This document shows, piece after piece, positions 4,908 through 28,181 of a stretch of DNA of 64,000 nucleotides; within the stretch, counting starts at the first letter, position 1; each line of letters begins with the position of its first letter. The notes beneath the pieces are model-generated. The model searched no databases and was not told the DNA's origin. It was given only the letters and a program-made list of their open reading frames with translations. Both the position numbers and the translations under genes were made by a program. The stretch comes from a virus (taxonomy: Duplodnaviria; Caudoviricetes), in IMG/VR virus record IMGVR_UViG_3300028048_000054, one strand, 5' to 3'.

Positions 4908-5225
4908 CTATTTACTCATAGTTTTTGCCAAACTGTCCACATAATAAACCAAATTGCCATAGTTTCCGTTAGTCCAAAAGTCAGTAATAATCTTTTTATT
5001 AGTTTCCAAAAGATTATTTAATTTTTCCAGTTTTTTGCTACTTTTGCGCCCCTCAAACAAAGTAGTGATAAAGTTTCCGTCTGCAAAAGGGGTAAATTGA
5101 CGCATAATAACTCCACCCCCGTAGTCCTTTTGAAATTCCTTGTGTACTGATAATCTATACTGCCCGTTTCTATGTACTACCTCTGCAACTAGGTACTCAT
5201 TTTTATCGTTCAATTTTACTTGCAT
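4908..5225 (-). CDS. hypothetical protein
   Basis: ORF, GAGG SD. Confidence 0.75.
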   Translation of the reverse strand: MQVKLNDKNEYLVAEVVHRNGQYRLSVHKEFQKDYGGGVIMRQFTPFADGNFITTLFEGRKSSKKLEKLNNLLETNKKIITDFWTNGNYGNLVYYVDSLAKTMSK

Positions 5226-5921
5226 AGAATAAACCTCACTTTTGATAAATTATACTACTTTACGGGCATACCATAGACGGGAGGTAAGATGATACACCCA
5301 TAGAGTAGCATAATAGAGGGGGGTATTTTGGCGGTTTATAGCCGACATAGTACCCCCCCCAGTTCTCAATGTTTTTTTTGGTAATAATCTTTTTTAGCGA
5401 TTATTTTTCTATCTTATTTTGTCTTTTTAGTCAGTTATGATAATAAGCAACACAACCCAACATCACTATTCTACCCAAAAATAAAGACACTCTCACAATA
5501 CTCACAAAATAGACATACTACCTCATAAATTTTGTGATATATCCGCTTTTTGTTTATTTTTACCCATAATAAAAAATAGTATAGTATTTTTAGCATACCT
5601 ATAATATCCCATTGTTTCCCTCTATGGTATAATAACACCGCTTGTATCTTACTATTAGCGGAATGGTAGTCCATCCCTCATAAGTCAATTTCGGCTTTTG
5701 GTACTAGCAACTAATATCATTTTGTTTCGTAATAGGCGCAATATACCCGTATCATTGTTATATTGCCTTATGCTTATTAAATACCTAGCACAATTTTTCA
5801 AAGACCCGCCCTATAAGTATTTTTTGCTTTTGTATATAGTTTTTTATGTTTTGATACTATCTCATTCATAATATACTTATATACTATTGTAGCATATAGT
5901 GTTATAAGGCCACTCATTCAC

Positions 5922-19582: not shown

Positions 19583-19870
19583 TTATTTTTCTTTCGCAAT
19601 ATCAAAGACTAATAATGCTAAAACACCAAATAAGATGAAAGCACCAATTTTGTCAATGAAAGGTAGTGCTAACCAATTCCAAGCAAACACAGCCAATGCG
19701 ATTGCTGCTAATTTATGCCAAGAATTAAAGATTGCGAAAAAGTAATGTAACAATGCAGCAAAGAATTGTAACACTGCTTTCACTACTTCTTTTACTACTT
19801 TCCATACTTTAACATACCATTTTTCGGATGCCATAGTATTCTCCTTAACTTGCAAACACAGCAGCGGCAA
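19583..19870 (-). CDS. small membrane protein (probable start MASEKW)
   Basis: two to three hydrophobic helices, AGGAG SD. Confidence 0.7.
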   Translation of the reverse strand: MPLLCLQVKENTMASEKWYVKVWKVVKEVVKAVLQFFAALLHYFFAIFNSWHKLAAIALAVFAWNWLALPFIDKIGAFILFGVLALLVFDIAKEK

Positions 19871-20408
19871 TTACGGTAGTCCATACACCATCTGCACAAA
19901 TAGCCGACTGTGTTATATTTGTGGTCTTAACAATCTTACCACTCATTTTCCAAATCTGTTCTTTTTGGTCCCAGGTTGCTTCATTATCAAAGTCTAAACC
20001 TAAAGTTGTAGATAACATTAGTGCTGCTAAATCTTCCGCATAATCACCTGCTTGTTTATCAGTTTCACCAAAAGAGTGGTGTTCAGATAAATAGCCATAG
20101 TGTGAAGAATCTTTAGGAATAGCAACACCAACTGAAGCGGAGACTAATCTGTGTGCTTCATTACAGGTATTTCTACTGATAACACAATGCAAGATTTGTC
20201 CTGGCTTTAATAATTTCACACCTTTATCTTTTGTTATAATTTTACATTTAGGTGGGAAAATACTTGATACTGGAACAATATTGTAGCAAGCAATTTTAGC
20301 ATCTCTCAATGCTTCTTCAAAACTTGCTAATTTTTCTTTATGTCTTCCAATTCCTTTTGTCAGGAATATTTCTTTCGGTACAAATGCTTCGTACATTGTG
20401 CTCTCCAT
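19845..20408 (-). CDS. pdaD: pyruvoyl-dependent arginine decarboxylase
   Basis: SFEEALRDA.IA.YNIVPVSSIFPP (Ser-Ser self-cleavage site), YGYLSEH, WTTVIAAAV. Confidence 0.9.
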   Translation of the reverse strand: MESTMYEAFVPKEIFLTKGIGRHKEKLASFEEALRDAKIACYNIVPVSSIFPPKCKIITKDKGVKLLKPGQILHCVISRNTCNEAHRLVSASVGVAIPKDSSHYGYLSEHHSFGETDKQAGDYAEDLAALMLSTTLGLDFDNEATWDQKEQIWKMSGKIVKTTNITQSAICADGVWTTVIAAAVFAS

Positions 20409-20501: not shown

Positions 20502-20978
20502 GTCCACTCTTTATTATCCCAGTAAAGAGGGCGAAAACCGTATCCGCTGTTCAACTAGTGTTTCGGATAACCTCAGTAAAGCATCATCAGAGAGGCCTAG
20601 GTGGATTATAAAAGAGGTGGGTTTATTCTGTAATTATCCCACCGACCCTACAGACGGGTGATTATAAAATTTAGATGACTTACTTGCACCCTACTTTGCT
20701 CCGAACGTGCTACTAATCAGGTAGTCGCAGGGTGCATTTCAAGTGTGTTCCGAGTCGTCTATACACAAGGCGATTAACTCTTGCTCCTGGTCAACAAGTA
20801 CTTTTCAGTCACAGTGATACCTTTTTCTGTAGGTAGTATCAAAACCTAAATTATCAAAATGTGGTGAGTCAAATGTTCCACGGCTCACTCACCTAAACCG
20901 TCCAACATTACACGTGCTAGTTGGAACTCTGTTTGCGGGATTACACGGAGGTGGTATGTAATTTAACCGCGAGTTGGA
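20502..20978 (-). ncRNA. chain of ~5 compact structured RNAs between tRNA-Val and tRNA-Pro
   Basis: no ORF; successive closed stems separated by AT-rich linkers, several pseudoknots. Confidence 0.55.
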
Positions 20979-20982
20979 ATGA

Positions 20983-21058
20983 TGGTGGTCCGTGAGGAAC
21001 TCGAATCCCCGACCTTCTGTGTGTAAAACAGACGCTCTACCGACTAAGCTAACGAACC
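20983..21058 (-). tRNA. tRNA-Val(TAC)
   Basis: TCTGT-TTTACAC-ACAGA, CCA. Confidence 0.93.
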
Positions 21059-21080
21059 ATTTACTAATCTATAATAAATA

Positions 21081-21230
21081 GAGAGCAAGGGAAATGGAAT
21101 CGAACCACCACGCCTTCTAAAAATGTAACACTTGTATACAGTAATTTACACAATTAGAATATCCACTCCAGCACCAGCGTTCATTGAATATAGTCCGTAT
21201 ACAAACTATACCAACTAAGGAGTCTTGCCC
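21081..21230 (-). ncRNA. tRNA-like RNA with acceptor/T arm and enlarged core
   Basis: GGGCAAG/CTTGCTC stem, GGTGG-TTCGATT-CCATT T arm, TTGTATACGG/CTGTATACAA internal complementarity. Confidence 0.55.
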
Positions 21231-21236
21231 ATAAAT

Positions 21237-21312
21237 TGGTGGACGCGAACCGAATCGAACGGTCACAAACCATCGTGCAGGGATGGTGCACTCCCAGTTA
21301 TGCTACGCGCCC
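21237..21312 (-). tRNA. tRNA-Ala(TGC), C33
   Basis: G3:U70, CCATC-CCTGCAC-GATGG, CCA. Confidence 0.9.
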
Positions 21313-21314
21313 AA

Positions 21315-22195
21315 TAAGAAGAGATAGTTTTACACCTTATCTCCAAGGGTGGTAGGTTATGGTGAGGTGGCGTTAACAAGGAGCGATTGCCATAACTCAA
21401 ATAGACTCCAACCACCTTGATGTACATCTACTAGTTTTCTACGATAGTTAGTGTGCTGACCATCACAGCCATCTCCACATCCGAGGTGTCTTATAGAGTC
21501 TCTAACTATAGGAATAATTAGATTACTATTCTTAGACGAACTTTCCCATCGAAGTAGAAAATTACAGGTACGATTCTCCCTATATAATTCCCACACCCAT
21601 ACCAGGAAGTGCAGACCAGTTTATTGGTTTATATAAGAAAGTATATATTTTAAAGCGTCCTATACCGAGACACTAGGGACAGGTCTTTGATAAGTGCTGA
21701 GTTGCCCCCGAGACATTTGCACTAAAAATTGTGGGTGATTACCGTACACCCCTACTGACTATGTAGACGTACTTTATTTAGTGCTAAAGTATAAACTCAC
21801 AGGTTATGGTCCCTGACACCCCTTATAGGTACGTATACAAGGTCTGACGGATGCTTGCAGTCCTTGGCGCATCTACCAAGTATTCCTCACCACTTTCTTT
21901 TAGGTAATTACTCCTACTGTACTTATGGACTTCTTGGAAAAATTGTATTGAAGTTCTCCTATTCAATCCTGTAATCAGCAGAGGTGTTTTCTTTAGTCCA
22001 AAAACATAATCTCGTCAGATGTTATGAAGTGTATCTGCAAACACGCAATTGATGATGTAGCACCACCCTGCATTGTATGATTCTCGGATAATGCAGTACC
22101 GAGGGGATTAAGACCATTTTATATGAGTTGTGCAATCCCAAACCGTAATCTCATATCTTATTAAATGGTGATTGGATTCACCTACCAACCACATT
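21315..22195 (-). ncRNA. candidate large, pseudoknot-rich ncRNA
   Basis: ~870 nt without credible ORF; many hairpins and 6-8 bp long-range complementarities. Confidence 0.6.
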
Positions 22196-22196
22196 C

Positions 22197-22566
22197 AGTA
22201 GTAAGCCGAAGGGTGTGTATTTTAACTATGGGTTACACACTACCCACGAAGTACTTCCCATTTTATTGTGTTGTCCGTGACTTCTTAGCCTTTCACAAAG
22301 TTAATAAATCGGCCCAGACCGTCGTAAGGGCTTTTTGAGGTACTACTAATTGGATGTGCTCGATTTGACACCATATTTCATCAGTATTTCACTGACCTTC
22401 CAAGTTTCGTCGGGTTTCAGGTTAAATCCACCCAGTCTCCTCTATCGACTTCTGCTCTCCAGTCCACTTTCAACCTGGTACCTTGGTAGGACCCACACTT
22501 GAGCAAATCTTTTCCATTCTGAGTGGCACGATACACCCTCTGGGTAAATGCTAATGCCACTTAGAA
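22197..22566 (-). ncRNA. two to three further compact structured RNAs
   Basis: TAGTAGTA/TACTACTG-closed domain with pseudoknots (22197-22348); TGCTC/GAGCA-closed domain (~22355-22510); hairpin 22517-22566. Confidence 0.5.
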
Positions 22567-22649
22567 TGGAGCTGGAGGTGGGACTCGAACCCACGGAGCT
22601 TTCGCGACGGTTTACAAAACCGTTCCTATTGCCACTAAGGGACTCCAGC
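22567..22649 (-). tRNA. tRNA-Thr(TGT), atypical long V arm
   Basis: ACGGT-TTTGTAA-ACCGT, G1-C72, C2-G71, U73 CCA, GC-GAAA-GC V arm. Confidence 0.82.
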
Positions 22650-22653
22650 ATAA

Positions 22654-22802
22654 TTATGGAAGAATAATTATAGTGCACTCATATGCTAACCTATGCTCTA
22701 CTCGTTGAGCTACTCCTCTATATCTGGTAGAGGAGATGGGACTTGCACCCACAACCCCAGGTTCCTATTCAGCGAAGTAAGCACCACTACCGCTTTCCAT
22801 AA
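22654..22802 (-). ncRNA. yrlA: Y RNA, YrlA-type (circularly permuted tRNA-like domain)
   Basis: terminal stem AAGCGG...TATTCT; order T arm (GTGGG-TGCAAGT-CCCAT), closed acceptor (CTCCTCTA-CCAGATA-TAGAGGAG), D arm (TAGCTC-AACGAGTA-GAGC); near Ro60 gene. Confidence 0.88.
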
Positions 22803-22964: not shown

Positions 22965-22993
22965 ATTATATCATATTTAATTAGTTTTGTCAA
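22965..22993 (-). promoter_or_regulatory. sigma70 promoter upstream of Y RNAs, followed by boxA-like 17-mer (22932-22948)
   Basis: TTGACA-17-TATAAT; GATATTTGACAATTTGA. Confidence 0.85.
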
Positions 22994-23443: not shown

Positions 23444-25078
23444 TTATTTATGTGTTCTAACTTTTACAATTTTGACAGGTTCTTGATGAATAACTTTTTG
23501 GTTTCCATCAATTCTATCCCAGATGTCAATCATTTGTTTGGCATACAGAGATTCTTTACCTGTCCAACCAGTTAAGATACAGGTTCTGTGTTCATTTTCA
23601 GGGAGTACAGAGTTGTCATAACCTGCTGTTTGTACGGAGAACACATTGACATTTGGATTAACCTTACGTCTATATTCCTGTACCAACTTTAGAACATCAA
23701 TATAGGCTTCATACCCACGACTACCACCATAAGTGTAGTTATGGTACTCACTACCATTTAATCCATACAACCCACCGTGTCCTGCTTGTTGGTCAGAGTA
23801 AATAAAGATGTTGTCATAGTGAATTTTATTGGTAATGGCATCACGGAAGAAAATCCAAATACCATTTTCAGTTGACCCACCTACATAGTTTGAACCACAA
23901 CGACCATAAGTATTATCCATATGTGTCATTTGATTCAAAATACCATCAGTTTTACTTACTGGGTTACCACCTAACTTATCACCAAAGTAATAAACTTCAC
24001 CTTCATCAGAATTTACCGCTGTCATAATAGAGGATAAATTATCGATGTTAGCAATTGTTACACTCCCATATTCAGAGTTAAATGTGTCCCAAGCCGAACC
24101 AGAGTTATCGGATAAGCAAGCAGTTCTTCCTTTTAATTTAGGAAAGTTTGCCATTGCATTATTAATACACATATTCAAGGCATCCATAATTACTGATTTA
24201 CCCTGAAACATCGGCATCTTATCAACAATTTGTAATGCTGTATAATAACGGAAAGGAAATTGTCTACCCTTTTCAACACCACTCAATAACAACTTGGCAA
24301 TTTGTTGTGCTAAATTATAATTGTGTGTTTGTTCCGTAAAAATACCACGCAAGTTTCTCAAGAGTGCCATATGTGGTACGTAGGTAGTTTCTAAAATATC
24401 TGCCCACGATTTTTTCTGCGCTCTTAAAGTTTCCCAAGTTTTTTCTTCGGCTTTGGTTTCAATATTACCAGTTTTCATCAATTCGTTGATGTTTTCATTG
24501 TTTGCGTGGGTAATACGAACCAAGTCAATAATAGAAGCCGTGGTTTTATATTTAGCCAATTGATAACGTGAAAAACCTTCTAATTCTTTTGCCCACACAC
24601 GTTTTAAGATAGTAGGTAAGTGGTTTTTGGTTTTATTGAACATCATCCAGGCTTCAAATTGATTCCAAATGTCGGTGGGGATATTAATAACATCCCGAAT
24701 ACATTTAGACATTAAACCTTTATAATCTTCATTAAATCCTTTGCGGTTTTTGTGCATAGCCGCCCGAATACAAATAATAGCAGGATTTAAGCGCATATTA
24801 TATTCGTTTCTTAATTTAACGGCTAATTCAATGGTTGCTTTAAAATTAAAATCTAATGACACATCAATTGCGGCAATAAATTTTTGTGCGTTTTCATTAA
24901 TACCACCTTTTTCGTAGTATTTAGGTTCCCCAAAGATTGCTGACGCTGCAATCATCTCCAAGTTTAATAATGGATTAACGGTATAACTAATACCATCCAT
25001 ATAATTAACTACTTGTTCCCCTTCGTGTTTTCTGTAATCTGCTTCCGATTTTTTTGCATATGTTTTTAGTCTGCTCAT
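23444..25078 (-). CDS. rsr: Ro60/Rsr TROVE-domain RNA-binding protein
   Basis: YQLAKY, DLVRITH, TWE, MALLRNLR, FPFRY TROVE motifs; vWA MIDAS DNSGS and SDQQ. Confidence 0.92.
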   Translation of the reverse strand: MSRLKTYAKKSEADYRKHEGEQVVNYMDGISYTVNPLLNLEMIAASAIFGEPKYYEKGGINENAQKFIAAIDVSLDFNFKATIELAVKLRNEYNMRLNPAIICIRAAMHKNRKGFNEDYKGLMSKCIRDVINIPTDIWNQFEAWMMFNKTKNHLPTILKRVWAKELEGFSRYQLAKYKTTASIIDLVRITHANNENINELMKTGNIETKAEEKTWETLRAQKKSWADILETTYVPHMALLRNLRGIFTEQTHNYNLAQQIAKLLLSGVEKGRQFPFRYYTALQIVDKMPMFQGKSVIMDALNMCINNAMANFPKLKGRTACLSDNSGSAWDTFNSEYGSVTIANIDNLSSIMTAVNSDEGEVYYFGDKLGGNPVSKTDGILNQMTHMDNTYGRCGSNYVGGSTENGIWIFFRDAITNKIHYDNIFIYSDQQAGHGGLYGLNGSEYHNYTYGGSRGYEAYIDVLKLVQEYRRKVNPNVNVFSVQTAGYDNSVLPENEHRTCILTGWTGKESLYAKQMIDIWDRIDGNQKVIHQEPVKIVKVRTHK

Positions 25079-25668: not shown

Positions 25669-25766
25669 ATTATATCAAATTTCTTCATTTTTGTCAAGTC
25701 CCCTGGGTTCTAAACCAGTTTCCCTTGACTTACTACTATTATACCATTTTTACTTATTTTTGTCAA
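25669..25766 (-). promoter_or_regulatory. tandem consensus promoters heading the RNA operon
   Basis: TTGACA-17-TATAAT at 25669-25697 and 25738-25766; boxA-like 17-mer at 25462-25478. Confidence 0.88.
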
Positions 25767-26115
25767 GCCAGTCCCAGTCAAACTGATATGGGTGTGTTAA
25801 GTCAAAGTGTTCAATTATACTCTTTACATCTCTGTGGCGTGTTTCATAGCATTCTTTTAATAAATCAGATAATTTTTCTAAACTAGATTCTAAATCCCTA
25901 ATATGGTATTCCGCATTATCTAATTCCTCCTCATAACTATCACGCTCTTCTCTTAATTCTTCTGTAGCCCTCTCTACCTCTTTTTCTACCTCATCTACAC
26001 GATTTACCATTTCGGCAATCTTAACCAGGGTCCAATAATCTAATTTTTCGAACTCATCAACTTTTTTTAAACTATTTACGTCCCACATATTAAATCTCCT
26101 CAAACCCAGCACCAA
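25750..26115 (-). CDS. coiled-coil hypothetical protein
   Basis: acidic heptad-rich ORF, AGGAG SD before MWDV. Confidence 0.7.
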   Translation of the reverse strand: MVLGLRRFNMWDVNSLKKVDEFEKLDYWTLVKIAEMVNRVDEVEKEVERATEELREERDSYEEELDNAEYHIRDLESSLEKLSDLLKECYETRHRDVKSIIEHFDLTHPYQFDWDWLDKNK

Positions 26116-26299
26116 GCATTTCTAATCGCAGTGCTTGATTACAGTGTGCTATATCGACACGAAAGAAACTTGTTGCCTCATCAAAATAAACACAAATGCC
26201 TTTTGGGTGTTCGTCCATTAGTTTTTTAATGAAGTCATAGTTTTCCGCATACAACGAGTCTTCTTTAATAAATGTTGCTGGTTTTCTGAATTTCGCCAT
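26090..26299 (-). CDS. hypothetical protein
   Basis: ORF, GAGG SD. Confidence 0.65.
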   Translation of the reverse strand: MAKFRKPATFIKEDSLYAENYDFIKKLMDEHPKGICVYFDEATSFFRVDIAHCNQALRLEMLGAGFEEI

Positions 26300-26307
26300 A
26301 TTAACCT

Positions 26308-26511
26308 CTACTTATTTACAATTAATCCTAGAATTACTGATGCTAAACCTACTAGTACGGTGGCGAATAACAAAATAAAAAGTGCTAGTCCAATACTAAT
26401 AAAAATAGGGCTAACTACCCACCACCAAGACCAATTTATAACACCACAGAGTTTTAACGTAATAAATACTACCGTCAGTAATGTCGCAAAACTGCCCAAT
26501 TTAATTTCCAT
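26308..26511 (-). CDS. small phage membrane protein (LKLCGVINWSWWWV.SP family)
   Basis: widely recurring phage TM motif. Confidence 0.8.
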   Translation of the reverse strand: MEIKLGSFATLLTVVFITLKLCGVINWSWWWVVSPIFISIGLALFILLFATVLVGLASVILGLIVNK

Positions 26512-26929
26512 ATTCTGTCTCCTTTTCGTCTACCCATTTACAATACAGGTCCCAATCTTTGTTTGTAGGAAGCAACTTACCATAATGTGCTATATCTCTA
26601 ATAAAACATTTATGATATTCCATCTTTGTTACTACTTCCATATAATGTTCTGGGTCATTGTCGTTCCACTTAATATTTATTATAGTCTTTTTAGTTTTTG
26701 GGTTGTATTCTGCTACTAACCCAAAATCTGGAATAACAACTCTAATTCCTTTCTTCGCACTATATTCCTCTACACGTGCTGCTTGACTTATACCTTTAGC
26801 CCAACGAAGAAATTCATTATACTTATATGCCCAATACGGTTCCTCATTACAATTTAACCAGTGCATCCAGGCTGTTACCTTAACTTCATCTGGGTAATTA
26901 AATTTATCGTACTTACTTTCCAAGTCCAT
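26501..26929 (-). CDS. hypothetical protein
   Basis: ORF in packed operon. Confidence 0.7.
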   Translation of the reverse strand: MDLESKYDKFNYPDEVKVTAWMHWLNCNEEPYWAYKYNEFLRWAKGISQAARVEEYSAKKGIRVVIPDFGLVAEYNPKTKKTIINIKWNDNDPEHYMEVVTKMEYHKCFIRDIAHYGKLLPTNKDWDLYCKWVDEKETEYGN

Positions 26930-27140
26930 TTTTTATCCTTTTATTGTACTCATTAACCAGTGCTTCATATGTTAGCACCCATTTTTCTGGTGGTTCAGCA
27001 TAACACTCGTCATTTCTATTCATAGCCATATTCATAGCCCGTACCATTTGTCGGTCCATCATTCTGATACAGTTATAAATATGAGTTGTTTCCATATCTT
27101 CTATAACTAATTTTCTTCCATCTCTTGTAGTCCAATACAT
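26913..27140 (-). CDS. hypothetical protein (paralogue of 8878-9273)
   Basis: WTTRDGRK..IEDMETTHI motif. Confidence 0.7.
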   Translation of the reverse strand: MYWTTRDGRKLVIEDMETTHIYNCIRMMDRQMVRAMNMAMNRNDECYAEPPEKWVLTYEALVNEYNKRIKNGLGK

Positions 27141-27143
27141 AAC

Positions 27144-27686
27144 TCACCACGGAAAATCATTAAAATATTTTCTATAAAATCTTAATATTGCTTGATTCGG
27201 CTTTACTCCTGGATTTAATCGTCCTTGAATATATCGGCACAACCCAGTAGAATTTATATCATCAACCTTATCAGAACACCAATCTTTTCTAGCATCAATT
27301 ATTGCTCGTAAATACAACTCATATGGGTCTTGTTGAAAAATATTTGAACTAATATTCCACAACACACCTAATGCTATTGCAGAACTACGAGAAATCCCAG
27401 CATCACAATGAATTAAAAGATTAAATGGTGTATGTTCTCGTAAACACTTTTCCCACCGTCTTTCAGCCCATTGGATTGCTAAAATACACTCCCCATCGCC
27501 TGGTGGATAGTATTTACGAAACTGATTTACTAATACCTTATCTACATCCCACATTTTTAATATAAGGTGGTTGTCGTGTATATGCTTAGTTAATTCCTTT
27601 TCATCTGGGCACACAATAGAAATAATATGTGTGTACTCGTCTTTACAATGATTATAAAATTGTCTGTCAGATTGTGTTACTATCAT
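27144..27686 (-). CDS. Cys-dependent (PTP/dual-specificity) phosphatase
   Basis: HCDAGISRS P-loop, MWD acid loop, PN motif. Confidence 0.88.
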   Translation of the reverse strand: MIVTQSDRQFYNHCKDEYTHIISIVCPDEKELTKHIHDNHLILKMWDVDKVLVNQFRKYYPPGDGECILAIQWAERRWEKCLREHTPFNLLIHCDAGISRSSAIALGVLWNISSNIFQQDPYELYLRAIIDARKDWCSDKVDDINSTGLCRYIQGRLNPGVKPNQAILRFYRKYFNDFPW

Positions 27687-27770
27687 AAATCCATCAACTC
27701 CTTAATAGCAAACAGTGTACACATAAAAGCAATTCCTAAAAAGAATCCTGCACATAGACCTGCACTTAAA

Positions 27771-28181
27771 TCAGTCCACATTAATTCCTAAACCCCATTT
27801 CTCTGCAAACGCTTTTTGTTTAGGCAAAAAGTAGTCATATATTTTAATTAATTCTTTTTCTTTGATTATATATTCTACTTCTTTTGGCATATAGATATTT
27901 AACTCTTTTCGTTCTATCATTCCACATATTCCGTCATAGAAATCGTCTTTGAGTTTTTGTAAATCTGAAACAAACTCATCTTGACGTTCTCCATATGTCT
28001 TTGATACTTTATAGGCTTCTTCAAAATAAATACGGAAGAAGTGTTCAAGATGTGATTCAGTGTGTTTATAATCGTCCCACCAAATTTCAAATTCCGTAAA
28101 TCTGTACTTTCTGTCTTTCGTTTCTAAATTATAAAATGCCATATTATTTACCTCTAATACCAATTTTATTATATAACTCAT
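27771..28181 (-). CDS. hypothetical protein
   Basis: ORF, GAGG SD before MAFY. Confidence 0.7.
   Translation of the reverse strand: MSYIIKLVLEVNNMAFYNLETKDRKYRFTEFEIWWDDYKHTESHLEHFFRIYFEEAYKVSKTYGERQDEFVSDLQKLKDDFYDGICGMIERKELNIYMPKEVEYIIKEKELIKIYDYFLPKQKAFAEKWGLGINVD

Follow-up and report, generated by a model that had tools for sequence, protein, structure and literature searches.

What fills a space of more than a kilobase between two transfer RNA (tRNA) genes of a tailed phage: one giant RNA, several smaller ones, or nothing that works as RNA? The question is raised by a stretch of 64,000 nucleotides (nt), here called the window, from the IMG/VR virus record IMGVR_UViG_3300028048_000054 (Duplodnaviria; Caudoviricetes). 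An earlier note on this DNA had described an RNA of about 870 nt at 21315–22195, free of open reading frames (ORFs), held together by long-range pairings and akin to the large ornate RNAs GOLLD and ROOL. These boundaries proved wrong on the 5′ side: the conserved ORF-free block runs from 22566 to 21313 and takes in two modules, A and B, upstream of 22195. The whole unit is therefore the 1,254-nt gap at 21313–22566 on the minus strand, which abuts tRNA-Thr at one end and tRNA-Ala at the other. What stands is that the RNA in this phage tRNA cluster encodes no protein, is structured and conserved, and is expressed; what falls is the single giant RNA clamped by long-range pairs. The gap is probably an array of autonomous structured RNA cassettes within a tRNA operon and not one obligate giant RNA.

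The gap divides into modules that assort independently

Homologous gaps were gathered from contigs encoding homologues of the protein Ro60, whose gene lies near the gap, and from one complete IMG/VR phage of 170.5 kb (G001, identical to locus L107). Ro60 protein identity to the window is 81% for loci L004–L007 and L008, 82% for L010 and L011, 74% for L009, and 72% for L115 and L116, while L118, L119, L122 and L123 belong, with L008, to one 90% cluster. Copies of the gap, from six further phage lineages, are 73–92% identical in DNA against 78–79% in the Ro60 gene, so that the gap is as conserved as the gene or more so. Alignments split the gap into blocks, each either wholly there or wholly missing in a given relative; every block folds on itself into closed local domains, and the linkers between them are rich in A and U. 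The blocks would make up an array of at least seven independently folding modules of ~50–225 nt each (A, B, C, D, D2, E1, E2a and E2b), given here 5′ to 3′ together with the bordering genes.

22567–22649, minus strand: tRNA-Thr(UGU), the 5′ border of the array (ARAGORN and Rfam tRNA model, 54.3 bits)
22517–22566, minus strand: hairpin 0, a strong stem-loop right after tRNA-Thr, found as a minimum-free-energy hairpin and 98% identical in L008 and L118
22305–22512, minus strand: module A, ~205 nt with nine helices and an apical-loop palindrome, GGUACC, at 22477–22482
22164–22304, minus strand: module B, ~140 nt, optional; missing from L004–L007, with only a 5′ scrap in L118
21940–22165, minus strand: module C, ~225 nt with an H-type pseudoknot; missing from L118, L119, L122 and L123
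21728–21936, minus strand: module D, ~210 nt, a hairpin domain followed in the description by a multibranch domain that is closed; the window, L008 and L107 have the module, and L118 has its core
21679–21726, minus strand: D2, a short segment found by alignment in the window and L107 only
21564–21678, minus strand: module E1, ~115 nt, Y-shaped and closed by an A/U-rich 12-bp helix
21435–21561, minus strand: module E2a, a closed domain of ~127 nt with an invariant 8-bp helix, UUUUCUAC/GUAGAAAA, around three hairpins
21321–21431, minus strand: module E2b, ~110 nt with covarying inner helices; its 3′ end is invariant over ~40 nt and stops 9 nt before tRNA-Ala
21237–21312, minus strand: tRNA-Ala(UGC), the 3′ border of the array (ARAGORN and Rfam tRNA model, 48.3 bits)

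The combinations in which these modules occur carry the argument. L009 has the order tRNA-Thr, A, an Ala-like tRNA and tRNA-Val. The order in L115 and L116 is tRNA-Thr, a tRNA-like element, A and tRNA-Asp; there A stops 2 nt before the tRNA, no other part of the array is present, and in L115 the module has a tRNA or tRNA-like structure on either flank. The four loci L118, L119, L122 and L123 have a Thr–Ala gap of 511 nt in which hairpin 0 is followed by a remnant of B, by the core of D and by E2, with neither A nor C. Blocks are also lost one or a few at a time: B from L004, D, D2 and E1 from L011, and D2 and E1 from L008, while L010 and L004 both have E1 without D. The short form in L011 measures 934 nt. 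The D position holds an unrelated 59 nt in L010 and L004 and nothing in L011. By alignment and nhmmer, E1 is near-identical in the window, L107, L010 and L004, and missing from L008, L011 and L118. Since A stands alone in two lineages and the D core with E2 occurs without A or C in another, no module needs another, and it is this independent assortment that decides between separate cassettes and a single RNA. As an obligate unit, the ~870-nt RNA proposed earlier is not supported; the stretch is a sum of parts that are also found separately.

Two further features of the gap were seen in the alignments. D2 and E1 together form a 167-nt indel (21564–21726) with an AATTTT repeat at its borders, nearly 100% identical between phages that differ by 10–20% around it; in the RNA sequencing run X22, one strain has 21557 joined directly to 21725, a junction that L008 shows in its DNA. 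This segment looks like one that has spread recently as a mobile piece. Hairpin 0 is replaced in L010, L011, L004 and L115 by a tRNA-like element with a CAU anticodon loop, a T arm and an odd D region, located directly 5′ of module A (L010:4944–5006, L011:3432–3501, L115:12310–12388). ARAGORN misses this element, and in L010 and L011 it gives weak Rfam tRNA-type matches of ~25 bits.

Local helices covary on the minus strand

Within modules, the structures are backed by compensatory change. Across seven sequences of module A, 93.7% of cells are paired against 37–48% when the structure is slid, and 23 of the 46 pairs are doubly changed against 4–9; none of 500 shuffles reaches the observed values. 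Modules C and E2, each with six sequences, both have 96.8% of cells paired (35–46% and 37–48% when slid, respectively) and 11 doubly changed pairs (against 0–1 for C and 0–3 for E2). Compensatory changes are found in both stems of the module C pseudoknot (stem 1, 22103–22099/22087–22083; stem 2, 22096–22091/22073–22068). Consensus folding with alifold gave 51 pairs for module D, 5 of them doubly changed among three sequences, and 33 pairs for module B, 2 of them doubly changed; both B and E1 vary too little for covariation to be tested. For the 3′ part of E2b, a single compensatory change in L010 speaks for a local hairpin (CACC/GGUG) and against the closing helix drawn by alifold, and this module probably contains a pseudoknot as well.

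A covariance model of module A with seven training copies recovered the untrained L115 copy at 202.7 bits and finds one copy per phage genome. In addition, 93 G·U cells would be mismatched on the opposite strand, which identifies the minus strand as the RNA strand. For the dense hairpins noticed earlier, covariation in homologues gives strong support to local helices, but single-sequence folding energy is only weakly better than in shuffles (minus strand, z = −1.85; plus strand, z = −1.10).

Distant complements occur at the rate expected by chance

The earlier note had rested its single RNA on six pairs of distant complementary words. All six are present, read on the minus strand, at 22035–40/21855–60, 22013–19/21843–49, 21968–75/21561–68, 21892–99/21635–42, 21885–92/21360–67 and 21791–96/21619–24. 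When distant exact complements in the 881 nt were compared with dinucleotide shuffles, words of six bases gave 107 against 98.8 ± 12, words of seven 22 against 25.4, words of eight 6 against 6.6, and words of nine or more none against 1.7, so that such pairs are no more frequent than chance. Each of the six joins blocks that are not co-inherited (C/D, C/E1 or E2, D/E1, D/E2). Even in L107, where all modules are present, changes in one arm go unanswered, leaving 4/7, 6/8, 4/8 and 5/8 positions paired, and one arm is deleted. The bases concerned are used in conserved local helices, for example in a hairpin of C (CAGAU/AUCUG), in the helix that closes E1, and in an E2b helix, GGUGG/CCACC, that covaries to GUCGG/CCGAC. 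None of the six is kept in the relatives, and these long-range pairings are chance matches.

A de novo search for helices kept in all sequences with at least two covarying pairs returned seven local helices, with spans of ~110 nt or less, and one long-range candidate, a weak helix of 5 bp with G·U pairs that involves the optional block B. Local helices were set against long-range ones in this way because a column-shuffle null destroys runs of ungapped columns and is unusable. Covariation thus supports no long-range pair between modules. A possible kissing interaction of the A loop with the linker of E2 was likewise rejected, since the variants at the two sites show no correlation among phages.

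The apical loop of module A keeps a palindrome while its sequence changes

In all nine copies of module A the apical loop is a perfect palindrome, and it takes four different sequences: GGUACC in the window, GACUAGUC in L008, L011, L004 and L107, UCCUAGGA in L010, and GUGUACAC in L009 and L115. The helix that closes this loop has one compensatory change in L009. A palindrome of this kind cannot pair with itself within one chain; its retention despite changes of sequence is as predicted for a symmetric loop–loop contact between two copies. By shuffling, the four variants have probabilities of 0.26, 0.08, 0.08 and 0.09, or ~1.5 × 10⁻⁴ jointly before correction for ~50 segments. The same argument from palindrome switching backed the symmetric kissing loops L9.3 of OLE and L21a of GOLLD (10.1101/2024.12.08.627333). 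The pattern is suggestive of self-association of module A through a symmetric kissing loop.

Other palindromes were not taken as signs of dimerisation. The invariant 10-nt palindromes GAAGUACUUC and GAUGUACAUC are of a sort of which ~1.2 per sequence are expected by chance, and the total count of palindromes, 16 against a shuffle mean of 20.8, is not above chance. A switch from UAAUUA to CAUAUG in a hairpin of E2a was set aside, as the palindrome is not consistently in the loop. Cofold energies of an A homodimer, computed without a control, were given no weight either.

The gap encodes no protein and matches no known RNA family

The earlier description of the region as ORF-free is borne out. 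The longest stop-to-stop frame in the gap spans 87 codons, where shuffles average 90 ± 21, and no ORF in 21313–22566 exceeds 79 aa; among homologues, open frames differ in position and indel lengths do not come in steps of three.

Searches of 20900–22700 against Rfam at E ≤ 10 returned the flanking tRNAs only, with no GOLLD, ROOL, OLE, tmRNA, RNase P, Y RNA, intron or ribozyme; at that threshold the YrlA and Y RNA models (RF02553, RF00019) gave no match inside 21313–22566. A cmscan of the window at the gathering score found neither GOLLD nor ROOL, nor did Rfam at E ≤ 1 on four homologous loci (L107, L011, L010 and L008), and the same was true of six more distant loci. No tRNA cloverleaf was detected within the window's gap by ARAGORN or the Rfam tRNA model. 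The modules match no Rfam 15 family. Of the two possibilities entertained earlier, these results speak against a divergent member of GOLLD or ROOL and for RNA that is new, and the cmscan comparison proposed as a check on novelty (GOLLD, ROOL, OLE, tmRNA, RNase P) produced no strong match that would undo it. A 2023 catalogue of phage structured RNAs required at least three IMG/VR occurrences and holds motifs of ~67 nt; the module family, with one IMG/VR copy, is unlikely to be in it.

The family also appears narrow in its distribution. A blastn search of the region against 50,697 GenBank phages found nothing similar at the DNA level, two scans of JGI metagenomes gave no further copy, and short-pattern scans of IMG/VR returned 94 loci that are all chance matches except L052, which is G001; a relaxed module A pattern likewise found only G001 in IMG/VR. 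Two IMG/VR loci reached through an arginine decarboxylase gene (L002 and L003) were discarded, since they have the gene in common with the window and not the RNA region. Neither nhmmer nor covariance models found modules in more distant Ro60 phages (L012, L108–L113, L117 and Bacillus phage G). In 145 genomes of the probable host family, Elusimicrobiaceae, searches for module A and for B to E2 gave a single match, a 25-nt chance hit, so that no host origin was found, an empty result that carries little weight. The RNA family is narrow and has so far been seen in the ruminant gut.

Other Ro60-bearing phages have further features in their tRNA islands. ORF-free gaps of 0.8–1.0 kb lie between tRNAs in two of the more distant ones (L108:3443–4252 and L113:3289–4333); they match neither the modules nor Rfam and may hold further new RNAs. 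IS605-type TnpB/OrfB and Y1 transposase genes sit inside the tRNA islands of the related phages L012, L111, L112 and L115, and L113 contains a group I intron (5094–5305, 64 bits).

The array is present in bovine-gut RNA libraries

Array sequences are present in four bovine-gut metatranscriptome runs from three studies, which hold 29–92% of the sampled words. Some 17 further assemblies from the gut of cattle and goats (X7–X23) have 29–43% of these words. In run X22, which samples a close relative, contig depth is 153–223 over 20610–22139 and 48 over 22148–22506, while it drops to 0 across most of the Ro60 gene and to <2 over 25748–27883; this pattern would not be expected even from DNA carry-over. 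Module contigs in this run are as deep as the tRNA-bearing contig or deeper. Single contigs of 1.05–1.5 kb extend from A to E2 in X3, X4 and X5. Two signals were not counted: the depth differences in X22 among the contigs for A plus B, C, and D to E2 are not interpretable, and contig stops at 22489–22507 in four runs, which match the start of A, also coincide with a strain-variable segment and may reflect an assembly branch.

The array lies in a tRNA island beside a Ro60 gene

The window has 20 tRNA genes, all on the minus strand, as is every gene from position 1 to ~43,000. Most tRNAs of the island are spaced 5–20 nt apart, without such spacers as the gap. GC content is 0.39–0.46 in the gap against 0.31–0.36 in nearby coding DNA. 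The source phage, of ~171 kb, occurs in bovine and goat gut samples. About 400 nt upstream of the array, there is a candidate start of transcription:

22965–22993, minus strand: sigma-70-type promoter, TTGACA-17-TG-TATAAT, with 12/12 hexamer matches, upstream of tRNA-Phe

Judged by its sequence, this promoter is likely the start of a transcript that would run through tRNA-Phe, tRNA-Thr and the module array. No terminator-like site was found within 21313–22566 and no internal promoter within the array; a consensus promoter upstream and the lack of a terminator in the gap fit co-transcription of the array with the tRNAs. A 39-nt element resembling the promoter recurs upstream of Ro60 in L004 and L010.

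The Ro60 (TROVE) protein of 544 aa is encoded at 23444–25078 on the minus strand, ~0.9 kb upstream of the gap and in the same operon-like block and tRNA island; its nearest relative from an isolate is gp540 of Bacillus phage G (45% identity). More than 3,400 Ro60 homologues were seen, many of them on phage-sized contigs. A weak YrlA-like match lies downstream of the Ro60 gene in L008, outside the array.

On the other side of the gap, the 178-nt spacer 21059–21236 (minus strand) between tRNA-Ala and tRNA-Val contains a canonical T-arm sequence, GGTTCGATTCC, with no tRNA called. It is conserved in L010 (88%) and L008 (73%) and partly in L009, and is probably another tRNA-shaped RNA. Farther downstream is a gene for a pyruvoyl arginine decarboxylase (19845–20408, minus strand), whose product is 81–85% identical to versions in many rumen and gut Elusimicrobiaceae genomes. 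This similarity suggests a recently captured host gene and hence a host among the Elusimicrobiaceae. Some long contigs assigned to metagenome-assembled genomes (MAGs), one of them 177.5 kb long, may be mis-binned phage genomes.

Separate cassettes and the alternatives

We favour an array of cassettes. The modules would be co-transcribed with phage tRNAs from the consensus promoter upstream, and the array would be freed by processing of the flanking tRNAs, by RNase P at tRNA-Ala and by 3′-end processing at tRNA-Thr, possibly with further cuts in the A/U-rich single-stranded linkers. Like tRNA genes, modules are acquired, dropped and swapped among related rumen phages. They are separate evolutionary units, and probably separate functional ones, that would persist as stable accessory RNAs of the tRNA island. 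The activities of phage and bacterial Ro60 proteins make a link to the neighbouring Ro60 plausible.

Several observations weigh against this account. No tRNA or known cleavage signal lies between the modules in the phage of the window, and they may physically stay on one 1.25-kb molecule. RNA contigs cross module borders and do not show RNA ends or sizes, and part of the RNA signal could be precursor or DNA. The order of A, C and E2 is constant wherever they occur together, which fits equally one RNA with optional domains. The alignments comprise 6–9 distinct sequences, several of them mosaics of each other, so that covarying pairs cannot be counted as independent events, and contacts of the tertiary or long-range kind may have escaped notice. 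The case for the palindrome of module A is built on four variants and a probability uncorrected for ~50 segments.

The strongest competitor, which we regard as possible but doubtful, is one ornate multi-domain RNA of 0.9–1.25 kb, with A, C and E2 as its core and B, D, D2 and E1 as options, brought together by tertiary or quaternary assembly and not by long Watson–Crick helices. It would act as a unit, as GOLLD and ROOL do, and occupy the same niche, the phage tRNA island. Those two RNAs also have variable portions, one half of the molecule in GOLLD and a linker in ROOL. The constant module order, the contigs unbroken from A to E2 and the lack of an internal promoter or terminator all suit it, as do the pseudoknots in C and probably E2b and the switching palindrome of the A loop, the signature of a kissing loop. 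Against it stand the lineages in which A, or the D core with E2, occurs alone, so that no core module needs the others, as well as the lack of supported covariation between modules and of any match to the GOLLD and ROOL models.

A bolder variant, which we think rather unlikely, takes the gap to be one concatemer of 0.5–1.25 kb whose kissing loops (the A palindrome, possibly with self-complementary elements in B and E2) would build RNA-only assemblies. It would then be a third, modular and recombining class of the GOLLD and ROOL kind, chaperoned or quality-controlled by Ro60, in phages probably of rumen Elusimicrobiaceae.

It is improbable that the modules are cis-acting spacers of the tRNA operon, which would guide or time RNase processing, shield the precursor from host nucleases or absorb host RNA-targeting defences, with no life after processing. 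Their constant place between tRNAs, the A/U-rich linkers and the tRNA-like elements and hairpin 0 at the borders would agree with such a role, and the neighbouring Ro60 gene and Y-like RNAs point to RNA quality control. Yet processing guides rarely need more than 200 nt of compensated multibranch structure with pseudoknots, most tRNAs of the island do without such spacers, and in X22 the module contigs are no less deep than the tRNA-bearing one. That the gap is no RNA feature at all, and holds decayed genes, small-protein genes or DNA-level sites such as binding palindromes or recombination scars, is hardly credible: several palindromes of 6–10 nt are conserved and D2 with E1 behaves as an indel between repeats, but no frame exceeds chance, indels do not come in threes, compensatory changes and G·U pairs are strand-specific, RNA depth is high and palindromes are not in excess.

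Relation to known phage RNAs

In behaviour, the nearest known system is the pair RNAC and RNAD of phage T4, autonomous stable RNAs punctuated by tRNAs. These are structured non-coding RNAs among phage tRNA genes, co-transcribed with them and with no assigned role (PMC3014915), and the array is likewise a non-coding structured RNA in, and co-oriented with, a phage tRNA cluster. It has no sequence relation to them, with no match in Rfam or the phage database, and differs in having at least seven modules without tRNAs between them, in being larger, more branched and shuffled between strains, and in lying beside a Ro60 gene.

In niche and complexity, GOLLD and ROOL are nearest, although neither family model matches. 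GOLLD (RF01998) is phage-encoded, very large and found near tRNA islands, has conserved and variable parts, and forms symmetric kissing loops with switching palindromes; the array shares its setting, placed as it is between tRNA-Thr and tRNA-Ala of the 20-tRNA island. Unlike GOLLD, its modules occur apart, and no shared conserved 3′ domain was seen. The one sign of a homo-oligomeric RNA-only nanocage of the GOLLD kind is indirect, the palindrome-switching loop of module A. ROOL (RF03087) resembles the array in its rumen origin, its occurrence in phages and prophages near tRNA islands, its multiple pseudoknots and its variable linker. However, ROOL is a single ~580-nt RNA that assembles into an octameric cage, whereas the pieces of the array assort independently, and with A alone in some phages and the D core with E2 alone in others there is no single ~580-nt unit whose core is present in all members. 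Y RNAs and YrlA come to mind from the Ro60 (Rsr) gene nearby, as phage Ro60 proteins bind phage-encoded Y-like RNAs; no module of the array, however, shows the terminal Ro-binding stem and tRNA-like domain that define YrlA.

Cages made of RNA alone were recently demonstrated for GOLLD and ROOL, and large structured RNAs of phage tRNA islands are known in very few classes. To these large phage RNAs the present locus adds several covariation-supported modules outside Rfam, with expression in rumen metatranscriptomes, and an organisation that differs, in which structured RNAs would act as shuffling cassettes between tRNAs. The natural variants, with A alone, E2 alone and every combination, amount to a ready-made deletion series. 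Module A, at ~205 nt, is predicted to dimerise through its palindrome-switching loop, and through the Ro60 gene beside the array the targets of phage Ro60 proteins could be approached.

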